Counted from the stretch's first letter, positions 7,519 to 55,794 are shown. The stretch: 64,000 nt of DNA from Candidatus Micrarchaeota archaeon (GCA_016207165.1 JACQQD010000009.1:96001-160000); one strand, 5' to 3'. Program-made: numbers and translations. Notes: generated by a model from the sequence alone, not told the origin.

Positions 7519-7630
7519 ACGCTAAAACCATTTTGTTCTTCATTTATAGCCGTATGGATGCTCGTCAAACAACGGGCTTGCCGGGTTGCGGAATATAGCC
7601 TTTTTATCCATCCGTTGCGCCTGTTTCTCA

Positions 7631-9442
7631 ATGGCGGTGAAGTTTTCCCCGAATAAGTTGTCATCGGTTGCCGAACAGATTCCTTGGAGCCGCGAGTCGC
7701 GGTTCTTCGGTTCCGCAACCGACGTGCACCGTTTTCGGCTGATTCCATCCGAGATTGACCCCAATCCCGAGTATCATTTGCAGGAAATTCTCCGTCAGTT
7801 TTCCGTTTGGCATCGGGTTCCCTTGAGCGCCCCCAAGGCCATGGAGCCACCGCGCGAGGTTCTCCAGCGCATTCAAGGAAAAATCAAGGCGGCGTTTCGG
7901 GTCATGCACCAAGCCCACGAGGGTCAGACGCGGCAGGCTTCCGGAGAACCGTATTGGACGCATCCCGTGCATACCGCGATTTGGGCGGCGCAAACCGCCA
8001 TGTCGTGGGAAGCCGTGTGCGCGGCGTTGCTTCACGACACCGTGGAGGATGGAAAAGTCAAATTGTCCGACATTCAACGGCAATTCGGCGACAACGTGGC
8101 TTACCTTGTTTACCGGTTGTCCAACTTTCGTTTCCGCAACGGCAAAGTCGTGAACGCTTGGAGCGACGATTACCACGCGGAACCCACCGAAAAAGACGTT
8201 CTCTTGGAAAAAAAGCATAAACTGGGGTTGGCGGCCCGAAAGCGCATGACGTTTCTCCGTGGACGCAATTATTCGGCGCGTTGGGAGCCCGTGGAAGTCC
8301 AAAACATGTTGAAGCGCTTTGAGCGGCAGGGCTACGCGCCGGAGTTTCTCAATCCCTTGGACATTCAAGCCATGATGATCAAGGGTTTGGACGTCGTCCA
8401 CAACGAGAACACGCAGTCGGGGTTGCCGGAGGAAAAAAGGCGGCGGTACGTGGAAAAACAGCAGGCGCTGGCGTTGGTGCACTTTTTGGAGGCGTTCAGC
8501 CCGGCGTACTTGGACTCGATTCCGTCGGAGCGGGCCGCACAATACCGCCAACCCGCCAACACGCAGGGGCCGTTTGGGTTTTACACGCGGCTGGCGGGAA
8601 GAAAGAAGCTGAATTTGGAGCGCCTTTCCCGTTTGCCGCCGGCGCACGCGCCCACCATCAACGTGCACGACAACGAGGATGGTTCGTACGACGTGCTTTT
8701 TCCGTATGCGGGGTTCGGTGGCGACAAGGCCGTCAATGACCAATTGTTTCTGGAACTCGTCAAGCAAATCCACCGGCGGCTGAATCCAGAAGGGGAAGTC
8801 ATTCACGATGAAAGCTTTTTGCCGCAGGGTTTTCCCCGTTTCCACGCCTTCCGCGTGCGTTTGGGAAACTTGGCTTTTGCGGATCTTGAAAGCGCGTTGC
8901 GGCACACGTACTTGAAGTATGCCGGGACGGCGTTTGAAACGGATGCCCACCAAGCCGATGCGGCCGGACTCTTTGCGGCGTACGAAGACCCAATGAAAAA
9001 AAGGGTGAGCATTTTCATTCCTGGAAGCGAATTTACGTTCGGAATCCGACCTGACCCGCACGAACATCCGGTTGAGTCGTTGGACCAGCTTCCCCACGCG
9101 ATTCGCGCGTTTTACCGGCACCGACACCCGGAGTTGGCGCAAGGCATTCACGTTGATGTCCCGGTTTCGCATCCATTCAATTCCACCATTTCCTTGCCCG
9201 TCAAATCGCCGCTGGACACCGTCGAGGGCTTGGAGCACCACTTGAAGCAGTTGGGTCACTACCTGGAGAACCTGAAGTTGCCGGATGCGGCGCCGGTTCC
9301 GCCAACGGACGAGGACCCCGATTCGGTTGATGCAAATGTTCGCGTCTCAAAGAAGTTCAAGCGGTACCGTTTTCAACGAAAAGGACCCAAGGGCAAAAGC
9401 GCGCCGCATGACCCATTCCAGCGTCCCAGAGACAAGGACTGA
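7631..9442 (+). CDS. RelA/SpoT-type HD hydrolase domain protein with a long unknown C-terminus
   Basis: AHEGQTRQASGEPYWTHP, AALLHDTVED, FGDNVAYLV; no recognisable synthetase, TGS or ACT domain; ATG 7631 follows a TTTTTAT box. Confidence 0.8.
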   Translation: MAVKFSPNKLSSVAEQIPWSRESRFFGSATDVHRFRLIPSEIDPNPEYHLQEILRQFSVWHRVPLSAPKAMEPPREVLQRIQGKIKAAFRVMHQAHEGQTRQASGEPYWTHPVHTAIWAAQTAMSWEAVCAALLHDTVEDGKVKLSDIQRQFGDNVAYLVYRLSNFRFRNGKVVNAWSDDYHAEPTEKDVLLEKKHKLGLAARKRMTFLRGRNYSARWEPVEVQNMLKRFERQGYAPEFLNPLDIQAMMIKGLDVVHNENTQSGLPEEKRRRYVEKQQALALVHFLEAFSPAYLDSIPSERAAQYRQPANTQGPFGFYTRLAGRKKLNLERLSRLPPAHAPTINVHDNEDGSYDVLFPYAGFGGDKAVNDQLFLELVKQIHRRLNPEGEVIHDESFLPQGFPRFHAFRVRLGNLAFADLESALRHTYLKYAGTAFETDAHQADAAGLFAAYEDPMKKRVSIFIPGSEFTFGIRPDPHEHPVESLDQLPHAIRAFYRHRHPELAQGIHVDVPVSHPFNSTISLPVKSPLDTVEGLEHHLKQLGHYLENLKLPDAAPVPPTDEDPDSVDANVRVSKKFKRYRFQRKGPKGKSAPHDPFQRPRDKD

Positions 9443-38579: not shown

Positions 38580-39098
38580 TTATTGTTGTTTTTCGCCGAA
38601 CGCCTCCTGCAAGACGGCTTCAAGCTCTTCTTGCGTGAACGGCTTGGCGAGGGTATACACCTTCCGTCCATGCACCCTCTTTGCATTGCGCATTTCGTCC
38701 TGGTGCTGGCCGCTCATGACCACGATGGGAGTCTCCTGGTGTTCGCTTCGGCTTTTGAGATTCTGGATGAGTTCCAACCCGCCCAAACCAGTATGAATTC
38801 CACGGTAGTGAACATCGGTGAACACGCCGTGGATGACGTCACCGACCGCGTTGGCGTTTTCCAAGTGTGCTAATGCCTCTTTCAAGTCTTCCGCTTGAAG
38901 CACGCGGTGGCCCAGGCGCGTCAAACTGCGGGAGACGACTTTTCGGGGAACCGCTTCGTCGTCCACGACCAAAAACGTGAGTTTTCGTGGTTCACCGGGC
39001 TTTTCAACCAAAGTCGGAGTCGGTCTTCGTCCAAAGGGTTTGGTCAACCACCCCAACCACCGGGAAACCGTTTTCCGGAAACCTCCTTCGCGTTGCAT
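38580..39098 (-). CDS. stand-alone response regulator receiver (REC) protein
   Basis: FLVVDDE, VFTD, GLELI, VVMSG, LAKPF. Confidence 0.85.
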   Translation of the reverse strand: MQREGGFRKTVSRWLGWLTKPFGRRPTPTLVEKPGEPRKLTFLVVDDEAVPRKVVSRSLTRLGHRVLQAEDLKEALAHLENANAVGDVIHGVFTDVHYRGIHTGLGGLELIQNLKSRSEHQETPIVVMSGQHQDEMRNAKRVHGRKVYTLAKPFTQEELEAVLQEAFGEKQQ

Positions 39099-48739: not shown

Positions 48740-50161
48740 TTACTCAATTCTCCGAATGATTCCCTTCTCGGCGTCGACTTCCACGAGGTCGCCGGTCTTA
48801 AACACGCGAGTAGCCATTTTGGCGCCCACGATGCAGGGCTTGCCGAATTCGCGGGCAATCACGGAGGCGTGGCTGGACACGCCGCCTTCGTCAGCCACCA
48901 CCGCCGCCGCGCGTTGGACCAAGGCCGCGTGACCGGGTTGCGTCATGGTCGTGATGAGTACGTCGCCGTCTTGAAACGCCGACTCGTCCTTGATGAGTTG
49001 TTCCATGCCCGCCACGTGAAGCACGTACGCCTTGCCGCGGGCCATGCCGGGGTTGGCCACGAATCCGGATACTTCGGAAACCGTCAAAACCGCGTCCAAA
49101 CCCATTTTGTTTCGCAACGCGTCAGCGGACTCACCGGTCAACAACTGGGTTTGGCCGTCGCGCCGCCAAACCGCGTACCCTTGTTTTCGTTCACGGATGA
49201 CGGTAGCATCCGGAATCTTGTTTTCCAACAAGGCCGACCGAAAGTCGTCGAGTGTGTACGCGTACAACAAGTCGTTCAACGGAGTCGTGGTGCGCCGCGC
49301 GATTTCAGCGTATAGGGATTGGAAACGCCATTCCGCACCCGCCCACGCGTTTTTTAGGGCCAAGCGCTCGTGGCCGAGGCGTTGGAGGAGCTTAAGGACG
49401 TCCACGGTTTGAGAATCCAGTTGCGCGAAGGCGTTCGCCTGTTTTTCCTTCAATTCGTTTCGATGCGCTTGGATTTGGTCCAACTGCGTTTGTAGGGTTT
49501 GCGTGTCTTGTTCTTGGCGGACGCGGGCGTGAAGCGATTCCAGCACTTTTCCGCGGGCAAACGTCTGGTAGAACATCCACGCGTGCTTTTGCGCGTGGGC
49601 TTCCAATTGCGCGTCGGAGGCAACTTGTTTCGCCAGGGAAATAATGTCCGAAAGTTCGTCGTCCACGATGTCGGGTTGCGTGGGGCTAGTCAGTTCGGAG
49701 AAGGATTTCTCGGAGTCAAACGCGGTGCCTTTCAATCCCGCTTTGGCTTTCTTGACCAAGGCGTGGGTGCCGGCTTCCTGGGTGGCGGAGAAAATCGTGC
49801 CGATTCGGCGGATGTGGCGGCACATGCCGTCCAGCGTTTCCCAAAGAAAAGCGTTGGAGGCGTCCGAAAGCGGTTGTTCTTTAAACGCGTTGGAAAGCTC
49901 GGCCAAGTCCTGGCACGCGGACGCGGATTCACTTAAAATGCGTTCTTGGACGCCCGGCTGCAACCATGTTGAGCTCATGGCCTGCCATTCCGAAAGCATG
50001 GCGCTTGACGCGTAGGCGGCCACGGTCTGGGGGTTGCCGAACACGACGTAGTCCACGCGTTGGGGTTGACCAAACGCGTAGGGACCGTAAGTCAAAACCG
50101 AGCGGTCGTGGATGGAGAAAAACGTGTGGGCTTCCGACCACTGGAATTCGTAGGGTTCCAT
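48740..50161 (-). CDS. PEP-utilising-enzyme mobile (phospho-His) domain protein
   Basis: C-terminal GDVLITTMT, DEGGVSSHASVIAREFGKPCIVG, VEVDAEKG; start re-assigned to ATG 50161 because the longer ORF overlaps the tRNA. Confidence 0.85.
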   Translation of the reverse strand: MEPYEFQWSEAHTFFSIHDRSVLTYGPYAFGQPQRVDYVVFGNPQTVAAYASSAMLSEWQAMSSTWLQPGVQERILSESASACQDLAELSNAFKEQPLSDASNAFLWETLDGMCRHIRRIGTIFSATQEAGTHALVKKAKAGLKGTAFDSEKSFSELTSPTQPDIVDDELSDIISLAKQVASDAQLEAHAQKHAWMFYQTFARGKVLESLHARVRQEQDTQTLQTQLDQIQAHRNELKEKQANAFAQLDSQTVDVLKLLQRLGHERLALKNAWAGAEWRFQSLYAEIARRTTTPLNDLLYAYTLDDFRSALLENKIPDATVIRERKQGYAVWRRDGQTQLLTGESADALRNKMGLDAVLTVSEVSGFVANPGMARGKAYVLHVAGMEQLIKDESAFQDGDVLITTMTQPGHAALVQRAAAVVADEGGVSSHASVIAREFGKPCIVGAKMATRVFKTGDLVEVDAEKGIIRRIE

Positions 50162-50224
50162 CCTGGCCTGAAAAGGAAGTTCGGGCTTGATATGGGTTTT
50201 GGAATATTGCCCGGGGTGGATGAG

Positions 50225-50350
50225 GACGAGGGCGGGGATTTGAACCCCGGTCTGCGGATTTCCGTTCCGAACCCGTCGCCGTTGGCAGGCAACGGCGACT
50301 TCGCTCAGAACCACAGTCCACTATCCTGACCAAGCTAGACGACCCTCGTC
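50225..50350 (-). tRNA. tRNA-His(GUG) with encoded G-1 and a 51-nt intron (50260-50310) at position 37/38
   Basis: G-ACGAGGG/CCCTCGT-C acceptor stem, GTGGA/TCCGC anticodon stem, CT-GTG-GA loop, CGGGG-TTCAAAT-CCCCG T-arm, BHB motif. Confidence 0.93.
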
Positions 50351-50400: not shown

Positions 50401-52176
50401 TTATTCTTTCGCTTCTTTGTTCAGGCCGCGTTCGTCGTCATCGAATTCGATGAGGTCAACTGGTTTTTTCCGGAAGCCTTTGCGGGAGAACCACTCGGTG
50501 GCAAACAACAACGCCAAAAGCGCGATGACGCCCAAAGGCAGAAGAATCGGGTTGTCGGGAAATGCCACCAAGCCCGTGATGGGCACCTGGGTGGTGTTCG
50601 AGGATTCAGGCGTTGCCGTTGTTACGGGTAGGGATGGAAGGGGAGCCGGAGTGGCGATTGGAGTGGATGTGCTGGATCCGACCAGTGTCCCCAAGCGTTG
50701 CATGATCGCGTCAATGGACAGGTCGGCTTGGCTGGAAGCGGCTGGCTGGGAGGACGCCTGCGTCGGCTCCGGTTGCGTGGACACGTCTTGAAGCCGGACG
50801 TCGATGGACAACTCGAAAATCGGGGTTTGGACCGTGGTTTGCGCGTTGGCGTCCGCGCCGGTGGCTTGGAAGTAGGCTTTGCAGTTTGCGGCGTACGGTG
50901 GCGACTGGATGACCCAGTCGGTGACGGAGGGCGCGTCCGCCAACCGGCCGACGAATTGGCTGGACAAGCCAATCAATTCACAGCCCTCGCTGACATCCAG
51001 TAAAGCCACGGTGGTGTTTTGGGACGCGGCTTGCCCGTCGTTGAAAAGGAATAATTCCACGCGCTTGGATTGGGAGGCGTCCAGTTGCAAGGGTTCGGCT
51101 TGCAGGCGCAGGGTTGCCGGTCGTTGGACGTCCACGGCCACGGGCGCGGAAATTACGTTTTGGAAGAGGCCTTGGGTTTGTTCGACGAACTTGCCCGTCA
51201 CGCGCAAGTCTTTGGTTCCTTCTGGAAGCCGTGTGGGGGCAAACAGGACCGGCTGGGTTTCGCCAGGGCCCAACGTGGTGAAGAAAGCGCTTTGGACGGG
51301 GTTCTGGCCTGCGTTGAGCGTTAAATTGACGTCGCGGGCCGAAGTCTCGCCGGTGTTCTGGACGTGGACGCCTATGGTGACGAACTCGTTGGCGGAATAC
51401 GTGGTGCGGGACGGCGGAACCAGGCGCAACGAAAGAGCGGCGGGGTTGAGGACCACTACCCGTCTGGAAATAGAGCGCGTCACGGGTTGCCCGTTGTTGG
51501 CGTCGGAGCCTAAGACGTCAAAGGCGACGTCCAAGGCGTCGGCGCGTTGCGGGGGCGTAACGTTCAGGAGAACGCGTTGGGTTTCGTTCGCGCGCAAGGT
51601 GAATGCGCCGGAGGGAGAAGCAACGAAGGGCAAAGACACGTCCACGGCATTGGAAAAGCCGCGTACTTGGAGGTGGACGTCTTGGGCAGTGGCCTGGCCG
51701 GTATTGATGACGGTGAGTTCAACGGGGTTGGAAAGTCCCGTCAGCCAGGAACCCGCGGTGTTTGATTCCACGGAAAGTTGGGACGGGTTTTGCACGTCGA
51801 AAACCACTGACGCGTTGGACGCCAAAGGCCCTTTCGGCGGGTACGCCAAAACGATGAACGAGTACGGGCCCGGCGTGGCGGGGGCGCGGGTGCTTAAACC
51901 GATAAATCCAGCGGCCAAAAAGTTGGTGCATGGAGCCGGACACGCGCAGTGCACGCGGCGCTGGGTGTCGGCGTTCTTGAACCAGTCCACGGGACAGGAA
52001 AAATCGTTGGGGCTGGCTTGCTGCCAGTTTTCGGGAAAGTACACGAAGACGCTGGAAACGGGTTGGGTGGCGGAAAAGGGAAACGAGAGGTTTGCGGCTT
52101 GTTGGGTGGTCAACGTCGAGGCGGAAACCGCGCTGGCGAAAAACACGAAGGCAAAGAGAAACGCAGGATACTTCAT
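50401..52176 (-). CDS. membrane-anchored surface protein with Ig/CARDB-like repeats
   Basis: signal peptide, repeated V.NTG...A.DV motifs, S/T/P linker, C-terminal TM and charged tail. Confidence 0.75.
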   Translation of the reverse strand: MKYPAFLFAFVFFASAVSASTLTTQQAANLSFPFSATQPVSSVFVYFPENWQQASPNDFSCPVDWFKNADTQRRVHCACPAPCTNFLAAGFIGLSTRAPATPGPYSFIVLAYPPKGPLASNASVVFDVQNPSQLSVESNTAGSWLTGLSNPVELTVINTGQATAQDVHLQVRGFSNAVDVSLPFVASPSGAFTLRANETQRVLLNVTPPQRADALDVAFDVLGSDANNGQPVTRSISRRVVVLNPAALSLRLVPPSRTTYSANEFVTIGVHVQNTGETSARDVNLTLNAGQNPVQSAFFTTLGPGETQPVLFAPTRLPEGTKDLRVTGKFVEQTQGLFQNVISAPVAVDVQRPATLRLQAEPLQLDASQSKRVELFLFNDGQAASQNTTVALLDVSEGCELIGLSSQFVGRLADAPSVTDWVIQSPPYAANCKAYFQATGADANAQTTVQTPIFELSIDVRLQDVSTQPEPTQASSQPAASSQADLSIDAIMQRLGTLVGSSTSTPIATPAPLPSLPVTTATPESSNTTQVPITGLVAFPDNPILLPLGVIALLALLFATEWFSRKGFRKKPVDLIEFDDDERGLNKEAKE

Positions 52177-52232
52177 TTCGCACAAGTAACGCCCAGGGAA
52201 GTATTTATAGCCGGTGTCGGTAAGTTTGACGC

Positions 52233-53153
52233 ATGGCGGAATGGGAGTGGCTTTGGTTCGGCGTGTCCATCGCCGTCATCGGATTTGCATTGGTTCGGTC
52301 CCTGCGCGGTTCCGGCCAGCACAACCCTTCCTTTTTTTTGTGGTCCATGCTGTTGGCCGTCTTGTTGGCTGAAGCGGGGGTCCGATTGATCGGCGCGCCG
52401 GAGTCCACGCTTCTGAACGCCTACCGCGTCGTGTTGGTGTTCGGTTTTCTCGCCATTTTTTTGACGTTTCACTACTGGAAAAGCCAGGCGGCTTGGTTGT
52501 ATGACGCCAAATCCAGTTTGCAGGGATTTTTCTCGTATTACTTGAGTCCCAAAGTCATCCAGGACTTGGTGTCCCGAGGCCACGTGCCGTTGGGCGGCAA
52601 GCGCCGGGACGTGACGGTGTTGGTCACCGACGTCCGCAATTCCACGAAGTTGGCGTTGGATTACCCGGCGGAGAAAGTCGTCAAATCACTGAATGCCTAC
52701 TTTGAGCTGGCCTCCCAGTCCGTGGCCCGCCATGGCGGGGTGGTGGACAAAATCACCGGCGACGGAGTCATGGCCGTATTCAACGCACTGAACGTTTTGC
52801 CGGACCACACCATGAAGGCGTTTTACGCCGCCGCGGAAATCCAGCAGGCCATGCCGGCGCTCAACGAGAAGCTGCGCAACCGCGGGCTTCCGGTTTTATC
52901 GGCAGGAGCCGGCATTGACGCGGGTGACGCCGTGGTCGGCAACATCGGCTCGCGGCACATGGTGCGCTTTACGGTGATTGGCGACGTGGCCAATACCGCT
53001 AACCGAGTTCAGGAAGCGGCCAAGGACGGGCAAGTGGTGTTGACGGAGGCGGCGTACCGCCGCGTGGCCGGGCACGTCAAGGGTTCGGGCCCAAAAACCG
53101 TGATGGCCAAAAACAAGGGACCGGTTTCCGTGTACGTGGTGAACGTGGTTTGA
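52233..53153 (+). CDS. membrane-bound class III adenylate/guanylate cyclase
   Basis: three N-terminal TM helices; VTVLVTDVRNST, DKITGDGVMAVF, VGNIGS, FTVIGDVANTANRVQ. Confidence 0.92.
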   Translation: MAEWEWLWFGVSIAVIGFALVRSLRGSGQHNPSFFLWSMLLAVLLAEAGVRLIGAPESTLLNAYRVVLVFGFLAIFLTFHYWKSQAAWLYDAKSSLQGFFSYYLSPKVIQDLVSRGHVPLGGKRRDVTVLVTDVRNSTKLALDYPAEKVVKSLNAYFELASQSVARHGGVVDKITGDGVMAVFNALNVLPDHTMKAFYAAAEIQQAMPALNEKLRNRGLPVLSAGAGIDAGDAVVGNIGSRHMVRFTVIGDVANTANRVQEAAKDGQVVLTEAAYRRVAGHVKGSGPKTVMAKNKGPVSVYVVNVV

Positions 53154-53155
53154 AG

Positions 53156-53920
53156 ATGACGTCCAATTCAAGGGGGCGGCTTGGACGAAAAGTAAGTTAC
53201 GCCGCCGTGTTCCGCCGCATGCGGGCCCGCTTGTCGGAAAAAGACCGGCAGGCGGACCAAGAGTATGGCCGCGTGTTTCAGGAAGCCCGGCTGAGAGTCC
53301 GCACCGACTTGAAAAACTTGGACGGCCATTTGCATTATCACAGCATGTACCACACCGAAGACGTGGTTCAAACCGCGGAAAGGCTGGCACGCCTCGCACA
53401 ACAAAAAGGGCAATTGTCGGAGCGGGACGTGTGGCTCATCAAGTTTGCCGCGCTGTTTCACGACCACGGGTTTTTGTCCGGCGTGTACCAGGACAACGAG
53501 GCGTTGGGCGCTCAGGCGGCGGAGGAACACCTCCGCGGCGCGTTATCGGATGAAGACGTCGGCATCATTAAAGCCGCCATCATGGATACGCAGCTCCGGG
53601 AGCACGGCGGGTACCCCGTGAAAGTGCAGAAACCGGCGACCCTTCACGGCAAATACTTGTGCGATGCGGACGTGGCAAGCTTAGGCCGAAATGATTACCA
53701 CCGGCTCAACATGAAATTGTACGCGGAACTCCAGGAGAAAAATCGGCTGCAGAGCCAAACGGGCCGCCAGCCATTGGAGGCCTTTTTGGAGCGAAGCATC
53801 CATTTCCTCAAGGCGCATGTGTGGCACACGGAAGCGGCGGAAAGCCAGTACGGAGTCCAGAAACTAGTCAACCTGCGCGGGGTTCAAAAGCAATTGGAGC
53901 GCCTCAAAAGCGCCGCCTGA
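53156..53920 (+). CDS. HD-domain phosphohydrolase (cyclic-nucleotide PDE-like)
   Basis: YHSMYHTEDV, AALFHDHG, NEALGA, LCDADVASLG. Confidence 0.82.
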   Translation: MTSNSRGRLGRKVSYAAVFRRMRARLSEKDRQADQEYGRVFQEARLRVRTDLKNLDGHLHYHSMYHTEDVVQTAERLARLAQQKGQLSERDVWLIKFAALFHDHGFLSGVYQDNEALGAQAAEEHLRGALSDEDVGIIKAAIMDTQLREHGGYPVKVQKPATLHGKYLCDADVASLGRNDYHRLNMKLYAELQEKNRLQSQTGRQPLEAFLERSIHFLKAHVWHTEAAESQYGVQKLVNLRGVQKQLERLKSAA

Positions 53921-53934
53921 ACGTACGGGCCACG

Positions 53935-55794
53935 CTAAGGGGCTCGCTCGAATTTGGGCTCCCTTCGCTTCGAAAGGATGAGGCCGAGGCCGGTGGTGGG
54001 GCCCGCATACCCTTTGTAGACTTCCATCAAGTGTTCGTCCTGGATTTTCATGGCCGCGGCGAACACGTCGGGATCGAAATGCCCGCCTTGAGTGAATTCG
54101 TGCATGAGGCCGCGCACGCGCTCCCAGGAAAACTGGCGCTTGCCGTATGGAACGCCCTTGACTTTCTTCATGCGGCGGATGTAGTCACGCTCCGTCAAAA
54201 ACGCGTCCATGACGTCGGCCATGGCGATGATGCGGGCCACCAACGGAATGTCGGTGCCGGCCAACCCGTCTGGGTAGCCTTTTCCGTCCCATCGCTCGTG
54301 GTGGTGCCGCGCGCCGTTGCGCACGGTTTCGCTGGGCCGGTGAAGCTTCAACTCGTTGTCGGAGTGGACGGGATGTTCCTTGATTTTCTCGAATTCCTCG
54401 TAAGCCAACAAGTCTTTTTTCCTCAGGAGTTCACCGGGTATGCTCAGCTTTCCGACGTCGTGAAGCAACGCCGCCATTTTGAACGCGTCGATGCGTCTCC
54501 GGCTGAACAACTCAACGCCGTGGCGCTCCACGTGGTCGGCGTTCATGATCCGGGCAATGAGTTCTGAGAGCGCCGCCACGCGTTCCGAGTGGCCCCGGGT
54601 GTACTCGTCGTGGTCTTCCAGGTCCTTCATACGGGAAATCAAGCCGGCGTGGCGCCCGAATCGGATTTCCATGTTCCGCCACAAGTCCAGCACGGGCCGG
54701 TTCAATCGGGCTTGGCGGGCAATCTTATGCATCTCGTCAAATGCCACCGCCGGAAGCGGCGTGTCCTTGTAGAAGTGAAATGACGCCAAATGGGGGGCCT
54801 CCGGGAGGGCGATGTCATCCTCGTATTCGTCGCGCAATTCAGGGGAAAAATGGCCGAGGTGGATGTCTCCTTCCGTGCAGGGCGTGTAACCCATGGCCTC
54901 GTCAATGAATCGCTGGCGCTGGATTTGATTCGGAAAATTCACGGTAAGGTGGGGTGCCGGCGTGCCATCGGGGTGCTGGTTTCCTTCCATGCCTAAATGC
55001 AGGCGCAAGGCGCGATACGTTCCGTGTTCGTCCAACCGCATGACCGGCAACGCGCGTACGTTTCGCCCCGTGCCGTCAATCAGGCTGACATACTTCAAAT
55101 AATCCACGCCAGGGTCGTCCTTTTGGCTGCCGACTTGATAAGGATCCGGTCGGCTGATCATGGCCAGGGTTGACGAGCCCCGGAGAGGGCCTTCACCGGG
55201 TTGTGGCGGACGCATCTTAAGATGGGGGTCGTGAAGTTCCCGTGCCGTTGGACGCCGGCCTTCCACGTAGGCGTTGTGCATGTACCAGGCCAAGGCATGC
55301 GCGGCCCGGCCTGGCGAAGCTTCACGCTCCATGGCGTGGGCCAACGCGGAAACATCGGGTTGCCGAAGCGGGGGAATCGTGTTTTCCTCGATTACGGCGG
55401 TGGCCAACTGTTTGATCTGGGGCCTGCGTCGTGCGTGAAGGGCGTACGGCTGGATGCGGTATCTCTGTAGGCCGTCGCGAATGGCTCGTTGGTCCGCGTC
55501 GGAAAATTCGCCGTGAATGATCAACGGATTTCCAAACCCGTGGCTGACGCGCTCATCCCGCTCATTTAAACCAATGGATTGCGCCATGGCCTGGTGAACG
55601 CGCTGCATGAACGCCGACATGGATTCCTCGGCTTCGCGTTGCACGTGAATGGGGTAAACGCCCAGTTGCTTGAAGACTTCCTCCGATAAAACGCCTGGAA
55701 CTTGCGTGGGCTTTTGCTCGTTGAAAACCACGGCCGAAGGGCGAACGGCAATTCGCTTGAGCCTCTGAGGCACCGGCCGAGCCTTGTAGGGCAT
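53935..55794 (-). CDS. HD-GYP domain protein with a long unknown N-terminus
   Basis: YTRGHSERVA, ALLHDVGK, HHHERWDGKGYPDGL, ARIIAMADVMDA, HFDP. Confidence 0.9.
   Translation of the reverse strand: MPYKARPVPQRLKRIAVRPSAVVFNEQKPTQVPGVLSEEVFKQLGVYPIHVQREAEESMSAFMQRVHQAMAQSIGLNERDERVSHGFGNPLIIHGEFSDADQRAIRDGLQRYRIQPYALHARRRPQIKQLATAVIEENTIPPLRQPDVSALAHAMEREASPGRAAHALAWYMHNAYVEGRRPTARELHDPHLKMRPPQPGEGPLRGSSTLAMISRPDPYQVGSQKDDPGVDYLKYVSLIDGTGRNVRALPVMRLDEHGTYRALRLHLGMEGNQHPDGTPAPHLTVNFPNQIQRQRFIDEAMGYTPCTEGDIHLGHFSPELRDEYEDDIALPEAPHLASFHFYKDTPLPAVAFDEMHKIARQARLNRPVLDLWRNMEIRFGRHAGLISRMKDLEDHDEYTRGHSERVAALSELIARIMNADHVERHGVELFSRRRIDAFKMAALLHDVGKLSIPGELLRKKDLLAYEEFEKIKEHPVHSDNELKLHRPSETVRNGARHHHERWDGKGYPDGLAGTDIPLVARIIAMADVMDAFLTERDYIRRMKKVKGVPYGKRQFSWERVRGLMHEFTQGGHFDPDVFAAAMKIQDEHLMEVYKGYAGPTTGLGLILSKRREPKFERAP

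Follow-up and report, generated by a model that had tools for sequence, protein, structure and literature searches.

We analysed a 64,000-nucleotide (nt) stretch of DNA, referred to here as the window (G000:C9:96001-160000), and found three adjacent genes in it that encode a membrane class III cyclase, a small HD-domain protein and an HD-GYP protein. The genome, G000 (1.27 Mb in 12 contigs, 90.2% complete and 0.43% contaminated), comes from a Micrarchaeota (DPANN) archaeon, which we take to be tiny and symbiotic. A first-pass annotation of this DNA had reported the three open reading frames (ORFs), with the HD gene starting 2 nt past the cyclase stop and the HD-GYP gene converging on that pair, and our reading placed them at exactly the same positions (Table 1). 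The 2 nt lie between the TGA of the cyclase gene and the ATG of the HD gene; an alternative TTG start of the HD gene, at 53150, overlaps the cyclase stop. The stops of the convergent HD and HD-GYP genes are 14 nt apart. A TATA-like box upstream of the cyclase gene suggests a promoter from which the cyclase and HD genes would be expressed as a leaderless transcript, that is, as an operon. A scan of the locus for sigma-70 promoters and terminators, which does not cover archaeal promoters, gave nothing above shuffled sequences. Genes for a PEP-utilizer-domain protein, HisRS, a transglutaminase-like protein and IleRS flank the locus. The window also holds archaeal hallmark genes, namely those for topoisomerase VI subunits A and B, a Pno1/KRR1-type KH protein and aspartate dehydrogenase; a contig of a sister genome (G147, Candidatus Micrarchaeota archaeon) is syntenic with it, and all three locus proteins are recorded on one contig of 170,659 bp. 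Because of these archaeal genes, the synteny within Micrarchaeota and the length of the contig, bacterial contamination is not a reasonable explanation of the locus.

Table 1. Positions of the three genes, of their domains and of other features in the window.
Feature	Position	Strand	Remarks
TATA-like box TTTATA	52203..52208	+	25 nt 5' of the cyclase ATG; 47-nt spacer to the divergent CARDB gene
Class III cyclase ORF	52233-53153	+	306 aa; ORF read
HD protein ORF	53156-53920	+	254 aa; ORF read
HD-GYP protein ORF	53935-55794	-	619 aa; ORF read
HD-GYP catalytic domain	54172..54621	-	aa 392-541 of 619; Pfam HD_5, 89.1 bits (cut-off 27.2)
GAF-like domain and long linker helix (putative)	54625..55371	-	aa 142-390, in front of HD-GYP; structure match only
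N-terminal alpha/beta domain, P-loop-kinase-like fold	55375..55755	-	aa 14-140; clade-specific
CARDB/NEW3-domain surface protein gene	50401-52185	-	594 aa; divergent from the cyclase gene
PEP-utilizer gene	48740-50314	-	
ORF with HD_4 (RelA/SpoT-type) domain	7586-9439	+	618 aa; 43 kb from the cyclase gene
Stand-alone response-regulator receiver gene	38583-39098	-	172 aa; Response_reg, 50 bits

The cyclase matched the Pfam family Guanylate_cyc (PF00211) with 59.9 bits, against a cut-off of 21.9. Its catalytic domain spans amino acids (aa) 125-303, and a Kyte-Doolittle profile gave three N-terminal hydrophobic segments (aa 6-24, 32-50 and 59-77). The catalytic residues were all present: D133, K173 (in VDKITGDG), D177, T247 (in FTVIG), N254 and R258. 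In HMMER alignments, the six residues coincided with those that bind metal or substrate or act on the transition state in Cya2, CyaB and OaPAC; K173 aligned with a Glu of 2w01 and a Lys of 6fht, and T247 with the Thr of CyaB and OaPAC. The nearest solved structures were Synechocystis Cya2 (2w01, 6e-30), its engineered phytochrome fusion (6fht), Pseudomonas aeruginosa CyaB (3r5g, 6e-17) and photoactivated adenylate cyclases. The three membrane segments, the two Asp residues, the Asn/Arg pair and the Lys and Thr noted in the first-pass annotation were thus borne out. A Lys/Thr substrate pair marks ATP-specific class IIIb cyclases. Judged from its sequence, the protein very probably makes cyclic AMP (cAMP). 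It shares the catalytic fold, the metal-binding Asp residues and the Lys/Thr and Asn/Arg pairs with the class IIIb adenylate cyclases CyaB (3r5g), OaPAC (5x4t) and Cya2 (2w01); it differs from them in being only 306 aa long, in having a minimal three-segment anchor and in lacking HAMP, CHASE and all other sensor domains. PF00211 was found in 19 genomes of a sample of 301 from the phylum, and the D-K-D-T-N-R set was complete in 18 of the 21 Micrarchaeota cyclases that we aligned. The small form of the enzyme is common to about 14 DPANN protein clusters (288-313 aa, 37-86% identity) that, judged by the names of their sources, come from Micrarchaeota, Norongarragalinales and Woesearchaeota.

At eight of nine other Micrarchaeota loci, among them L015-L018, L020, L021, L026 and L027, the gene directly downstream of that for a membrane cyclase of about 305 aa encodes a polytopic membrane protein of only 142-194 aa, which has no Pfam match. 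These small proteins are homologous within families, and they may be conserved partners of the cyclase. In G147, a membrane-like ORF of 169 aa (L079:7201-7710) directly follows the cyclase gene; it had no Pfam or PADLOC match and did not resemble the long 5' extension that the HD frame has in the metagenome contig L080. G000 has no such ORF, and the HD gene comes next.

The HD protein contains the motifs YH62SMYH66, H102-D103 and D170-A-D172, and its YHxxxH and HD stretches align with those of class I phosphodiesterases (PDEs) such as PDE4 and TbrPDEB1. A word-index search for homologues gave just two proteins, and an exhaustive HMMER search was needed; it yielded 1679 relatives at E<=1e-3, of which 329 reached E<=1e-10. 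At loci with a named organism, the relatives are mostly bacterial and largely from Bacteroidota. Residues H62, H66, H102, D103, D170, D172 and E191 were invariant in 70 aligned relatives. A local cyclase hidden Markov model detected a fused class III cyclase in 23 of the 149 best non-self relatives. We scanned 26 of the best relatives with Pfam and found nine cyclase fusions (with Y_Y_Y, 7TMR-DISM or PAS sensors), four HD-GAF proteins, some with a histidine kinase, two kinase-receiver-HD proteins and three HD-PycTM proteins. The first-pass annotation had called the protein PDE-like and had placed such domains beside cyclases and Pycsar-type effectors; for the family this is correct, because relatives are fused to cyclase and PycTM domains.

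An AlphaFold (AF2) model of the HD protein had a mean predicted local distance difference test (pLDDT) score of 93.3. Foldseek returned PDE10, TcrPDEC1 and PDE5 as its top matches (E about 1e-3, template modelling scores of 0.5-0.57). In VIA-align, the model gave Z 17.9 with 2pq7 (170 residues aligned), 17.0 with the PDE domain of RhoPDE (216) and 16.6 with YpgQ (178). Class I PDEs came next as a group, with Z 15-16.4 over 206-222 aligned residues, before the scores fell to 12.9. On this model, the fold is that of a miniature PDE-like HD domain. The eukaryotic class I PDEs (PDE2/4/5/9/10, RhoPDE and TbrPDEB1) have the same YHxxxH...HD...D metal site and resemble the model in their helical fold, with Z 15-17 over 206-222 residues, level with 2pq7 and YpgQ; the HD protein is about 100 residues shorter than they are and 11-18% identical to them.

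The bacterial fusions, with the order Y_Y_Y/7TMR-DISM/PAS - Guanylate_cyc - HD, join the same HD family to a class III cyclase in one chain, whereas the window has two separate genes in an archaeal host. Literature searches found no characterised member of these fusions, and full-text searches, with matches screened by title and abstract, found no tested member of the cyclase-associated HD family. Myxococcus PdeA and PdeB were considered as HD-type cAMP PDEs and dropped, as PMC4222275, in the part available to us, lists them among the class III metallophosphoesterase PDEs. The nearest characterised analogue of the cyclase and HD pair is plant CAPE (COMBINED AC with PDE) of Marchantia and other streptophytes, which, as described in the excerpts available, likewise unites a class III cyclase and a cAMP PDE in one unit (PMC5159850, PMC8115329). 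In CAPE, both parts belong to a single polypeptide and the class I PDE domain is complete, whereas the PDE-like protein of the window is a 254-aa miniature that scores below the PDEase_I cut-off.

In the HD-GYP protein, the HD and HHERWDGKGYP motifs are intact. Its best solved relatives were V-cGAP3 of Vibrio cholerae (5z7c, 3e-27), PmGH (4mcw, 1e-17) and PA4781. Residues H395, D396, H402, H445-D446, K449, H474, H498-H499, G504, G506-Y507-P508, D527 and D530 were invariant in five orthologues, which, the nearest one excepted, are only 30-38% identical overall. The domain is probably active, since its motifs and metal ligands are unchanged in orthologues that have diverged so far; the first-pass description of the gene as intact was thus well founded. 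The first 390 residues had no Pfam match at E<=0.01, and a PDB profile search with the N-terminus found no GAF domain, its sole match being a designed binder (E 0.096). Among the sequences searched, the N-terminal region was found only in G000, P0153, G147, L080/L081 and L128; the word-index search with it gave just two proteins, and the protein atlas gave no usable match. A model of the N-terminus built from a four-sequence alignment had a pLDDT of 74.6, with values mostly of 80-94 in the alpha/beta domain and weak values of 46-69 at aa 200-310. The alpha/beta domain resembled APE1195 (VIA Z 10.7, 113 residues aligned), and no Walker A motif was read in its sequence. The region from aa 142 to 390, where the model is partly of low confidence, gave VIA Z 10.3 with the GAF domain of PDE2A (153 residues aligned, root-mean-square deviation 3.9), 9.6-9.9 with those of PDE5 and PDE6 and 8.4 with that of PmGH; the range of 8.4-10.3 included phytochrome GAFs. 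We regard a GAF-like domain before the HD-GYP domain as a lead from modelling, not a result. Compared with the GAF-HD-GYP PDEs PmGH (4mcw) and Tlr0485, the protein has the same C-terminal HD-GYP domain with all motifs and, in the model, a GAF-like fold directly before it; it differs in that the GAF likeness is structural and weak, in that an extra alpha/beta domain comes first and in that no diguanylate cyclase was found in the genome.

The first-pass annotation had also suggested a genome-wide search for GGDEF, DAC, CD-NTase and cNMP-binding domains. Profile searches of G000 for GGDEF (PF00990), DAC (PF02457), SMODS (PF18144), cNMP_binding, GAF_2 and PilZ found none of them; because the genome is 90% complete, these domains are to be taken as not found rather than as proven absent. 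The same genome had one PF00211 match and one HD_5 match. No GGDEF domain was found in G147. In the phylum sample, GGDEF occurred in 129 of the 301 genomes (113 over the cut-off; one of them, G029, is flagged as unpublished), counted by domain match alone, and HD_5 (HD-GYP) occurred in 41, in 32 of them over the cut-off. GGDEF accompanied HD-GYP in 21 of these 32 genomes; the other 11 had none, and five of the 11 are from the window's own family. GGDEF proteins of archaea that are active as diguanylate cyclases when placed in bacterial hosts have been described (Sidorov et al. 2026, PMC13725321), and the available portion of that study assigns archaeal GGDEF proteins mostly to DPANN and class II metagenome-assembled genomes (MAGs) and calls their distribution sporadic. 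In view of this activity and of the phylum counts, the first-pass view that archaea have no established signalling by cyclic di-GMP (c-di-GMP) is outdated. The census of Galperin and Chou (2021), as far as its text was accessible, counted 70 archaeal HD-GYP ORFs and regarded those derived from MAGs as possible contamination.

The gene order cyclase-HD-(convergent) HD-GYP was also present in G147, with the extra 169-aa ORF after the cyclase gene, and in L080. The contig L081 carried HD, HD-GYP, PEP-utilizer and HisRS genes. The orthologues P0155 (cyclase), P0002 (HD) and P0153 (HD-GYP) probably share one contig, because the longest contig of each is 13,652 bp. L128, a contig of the Micrarchaeota MAG G301, carried PEP-utilizer, HD, AP_endonuc_2 and HD-GYP genes. 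In each of the five cases seen, the HD-GYP gene has kept its place next to the HD gene. The linkage of the three genes, which the first-pass annotation had proposed to check in relatives, is thus seen only in the small clade of the window: outside the clade, the cyclase gene and the HD-GYP gene (over the cut-off) were on different contigs in seven of the nine sampled genomes that have both.

We propose, with about as much doubt as confidence, that the locus is a chromosomal cAMP module of one small Micrarchaeota clade and not a defence island. In all likelihood, the cyclase, a class IIIb enzyme anchored in the membrane by three segments, would work as a homodimer and convert ATP to 3',5'-cAMP. 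The HD metalloenzyme, a miniature relative of the PDEs in form, would then hydrolyse cAMP to 5'-AMP; its metals would be held at H66, H102, D103 and D170/D172, and H62 would stand where class I PDEs have their general acid. As maker and breaker would be made together, we propose that the cAMP signals are short or local. The HD-GYP PDE, probably transcribed separately from the cyclase-HD pair, might hydrolyse a cyclic dinucleotide or mononucleotide under the control of the clade-specific alpha/beta and GAF-like sensor in front of it. Because the genome yielded neither a known synthase for the substrates that such enzymes usually have nor any further known receptor domain for cAMP, this protein is the best candidate for a cAMP reader. 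That its GAF-like sensor reads cAMP is nevertheless doubtful; a precedent is the GAF-HD-GYP protein Tlr0485, which is reported to be controlled by cAMP (10.1101/2021.11.05.467447, as far as accessible). Of the compact make-and-break second-messenger locus that had been inferred in the first-pass annotation, a pair that would make and break cAMP is likely, and the tie to the HD-GYP gene holds only in the small clade.

A number of observations weigh against this proposal, and many of them concern the HD protein, which could instead serve in housekeeping as a YpgQ/2pq7-type nucleotide hydrolase, either a nucleotidase or an NTP pyrophosphohydrolase, with the three genes being neighbours by descent in a syntenic housekeeping region. 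The best PDB profile match of the HD protein was 2pq7 (4e-7), ahead of the PDEs (2e-4), and the VIA Z scores of 2pq7 and YpgQ given above make the modelled fold equally close to YpgQ-type hydrolases; the PDE alignments nevertheless span 206-222 residues, against 170-178 for 2pq7 and YpgQ. The protein had no NCBIfam match and fell below every Pfam cut-off, with 20.9 bits for HD-CE, 19.0 for DUF7108, 17.1 for HD (cut-off 22, which many relatives in the family pass) and 16.1 for PDEase_I (cut-off 24.8), the last match being limited to aa 61-105. In a FastTree phylogeny of 161 domains, with moderate support, it grouped with P0002-P0005 (96), and this clade was sister to a large clade of stand-alone and GAF-fused proteins, outside the cyclase-fused clade. 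The HD protein or a homologue was found in 12 of the 301 phylum genomes; in ten of these, which belong to other families, the homologue shares 29-38% identity and the search for a cyclase found none. These ten homologues adjoin genes for NTPase_I-T (two loci), NUDIX, type I phosphodiesterase/nucleotide pyrophosphatase or ribosomal proteins. G301 keeps the HD and HD-GYP orthologues and one GGDEF gene, and no PF00211 match was found anywhere in this genome, the completeness of which is not given. Furthermore, HisRS (66% identity), IleRS (71%) and the PEP-utilizer gene are likewise syntenic; because the whole neighbourhood is conserved, housekeeping genes included, the linkage is weak evidence of a shared function. 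The HD protein also diverged fastest from its closest relative (P0002, 53% identity, against 86% for the cyclase P0155 and 78% for the HD-GYP protein P0153), a rate unusually fast for a presumed enzyme, with the catalytic residues kept. Against a housekeeping role stand the repeated fusions of the family to signalling domains (cyclase in 23/149, GAF-kinase, kinase-receiver and PycTM), the YH motif, which precedes the metal-binding His by four residues, shows no variation among 70 relatives and has its counterpart in class I PDEs in the alignments, and the 2-nt gap between the cyclase stop and the HD start. We consider the housekeeping account rather unlikely. On the family's domain fusions, the motifs and the fold, the balance tips slightly towards hydrolysis of cAMP by the HD enzyme.

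The place of the HD-GYP protein in a cAMP module is also open to challenge. It could be independent of the cAMP pair, as a leftover of the c-di-GMP system of the phylum that acts on c-di-GMP or cyclic GMP-AMP (cGAMP) from outside or from an unrecognised synthase, or that works through protein contacts. The frequency of GGDEF in the phylum and in the HD-GYP genomes, its presence together with an orthologous HD-GYP gene in G301, where no cyclase was found, the separate contigs in seven of nine genomes and the best solved relatives, which are cGAMP and c-di-GMP PDEs, all favour independence. The sensor evidence also tells against a cAMP reader: hhalign of the N-terminus with eight GAF domains gave a probability of 0.3%, the same as for controls, a Foldseek search with the model of the N-terminus had no match at E<=1e-3, and the GAF likeness comes from that model, which is partly of low confidence. 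On the other side, no GGDEF, DAC or SMODS domain was found in G000 and no GGDEF in G147, and the catalytic residues are conserved nonetheless in a gene that is beside the HD gene in all five instances. Such a leftover would, moreover, be compatible with the cAMP module if its sensor reads cAMP. We judge independence to be somewhat unlikely. A Pycsar-like or other cyclic-nucleotide defence system against viruses is hardly credible. PADLOC PycC models did match the cyclase, with up to 76 bits, and the effector domain PycTM occurs in fusion with some relatives of the HD domain; however, PycC matches would be expected from any class III cyclase, and at its substrate site the enzyme has Lys/Thr, the canonical pair for ATP. 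The HD and HD-GYP proteins had no PADLOC match of note, no transmembrane, TIR or cNMP-binding effector is adjacent, and the locus keeps its chromosomal position between housekeeping genes in diverged relatives. The role in defence or host interaction that the first-pass annotation had entertained finds no support for the same reasons, namely the lack of an adjacent effector, the canonical ATP residues and the conserved position.

Other genes of the window deserve mention. The CARDB/NEW3-domain surface protein has hydrophobic segments at both its N- and C-termini; its gene is not at this position in G147, L080 or L128, and in G000 its insertion parts the PEP-utilizer gene from the locus. The PEP-utilizer gene adjoins the HD/HD-GYP genes in all relatives seen (L079, L080, L081 and L128). 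Its protein, of about 470-520 aa, has only the C-terminal PEP-utilizer mobile domain, and the N-terminal 400 residues had no Pfam match. Farther away, the window encodes a protein with a RelA/SpoT-type HD_4 domain and a stand-alone response-regulator receiver, the gene of which adjoins the topoisomerase VI genes (Table 1).

The catalytic domains of all three locus proteins are of known kinds. What is new is the archaeal setting, the occurrence of cyclase and HD domains, otherwise seen as bacterial fusions, as split genes, and an intact HD-GYP protein with a clade-specific sensor in genomes where no GGDEF was found. Being on a 170-kb contig with archaeal hallmark genes, it is a clean archaeal case of an intact HD-GYP. 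The counts of GGDEF (129) and HD-GYP (41) in the 301 sampled genomes also put c-di-GMP genes in this DPANN phylum well above a sporadic level. According to the accessible part of a 2023 review (PMC10249747), no cAMP-making, cAMP-degrading or cAMP-binding protein from archaea had been characterised; the locus offers three short, expressible candidates for archaeal cAMP synthesis, degradation and binding. As the PDE-like HD family is large and no tested member was found in the literature searches, one assay would annotate many cyclase-HD fusion proteins. At its most far-reaching, and we hold this to be improbable, the locus would be the first complete cAMP writer-eraser-reader circuit in an archaeon: the cyclase would write, a miniature, ancestor-like PDE would erase, and the HD-GYP protein would read through a cryptic GAF-like sensor and then hydrolyse a cyclic dinucleotide of outside origin, for example from neighbours or a host, for which the cell itself has no source. 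If true, this circuit would tie the cAMP state of the archaeon to signals from its partners.

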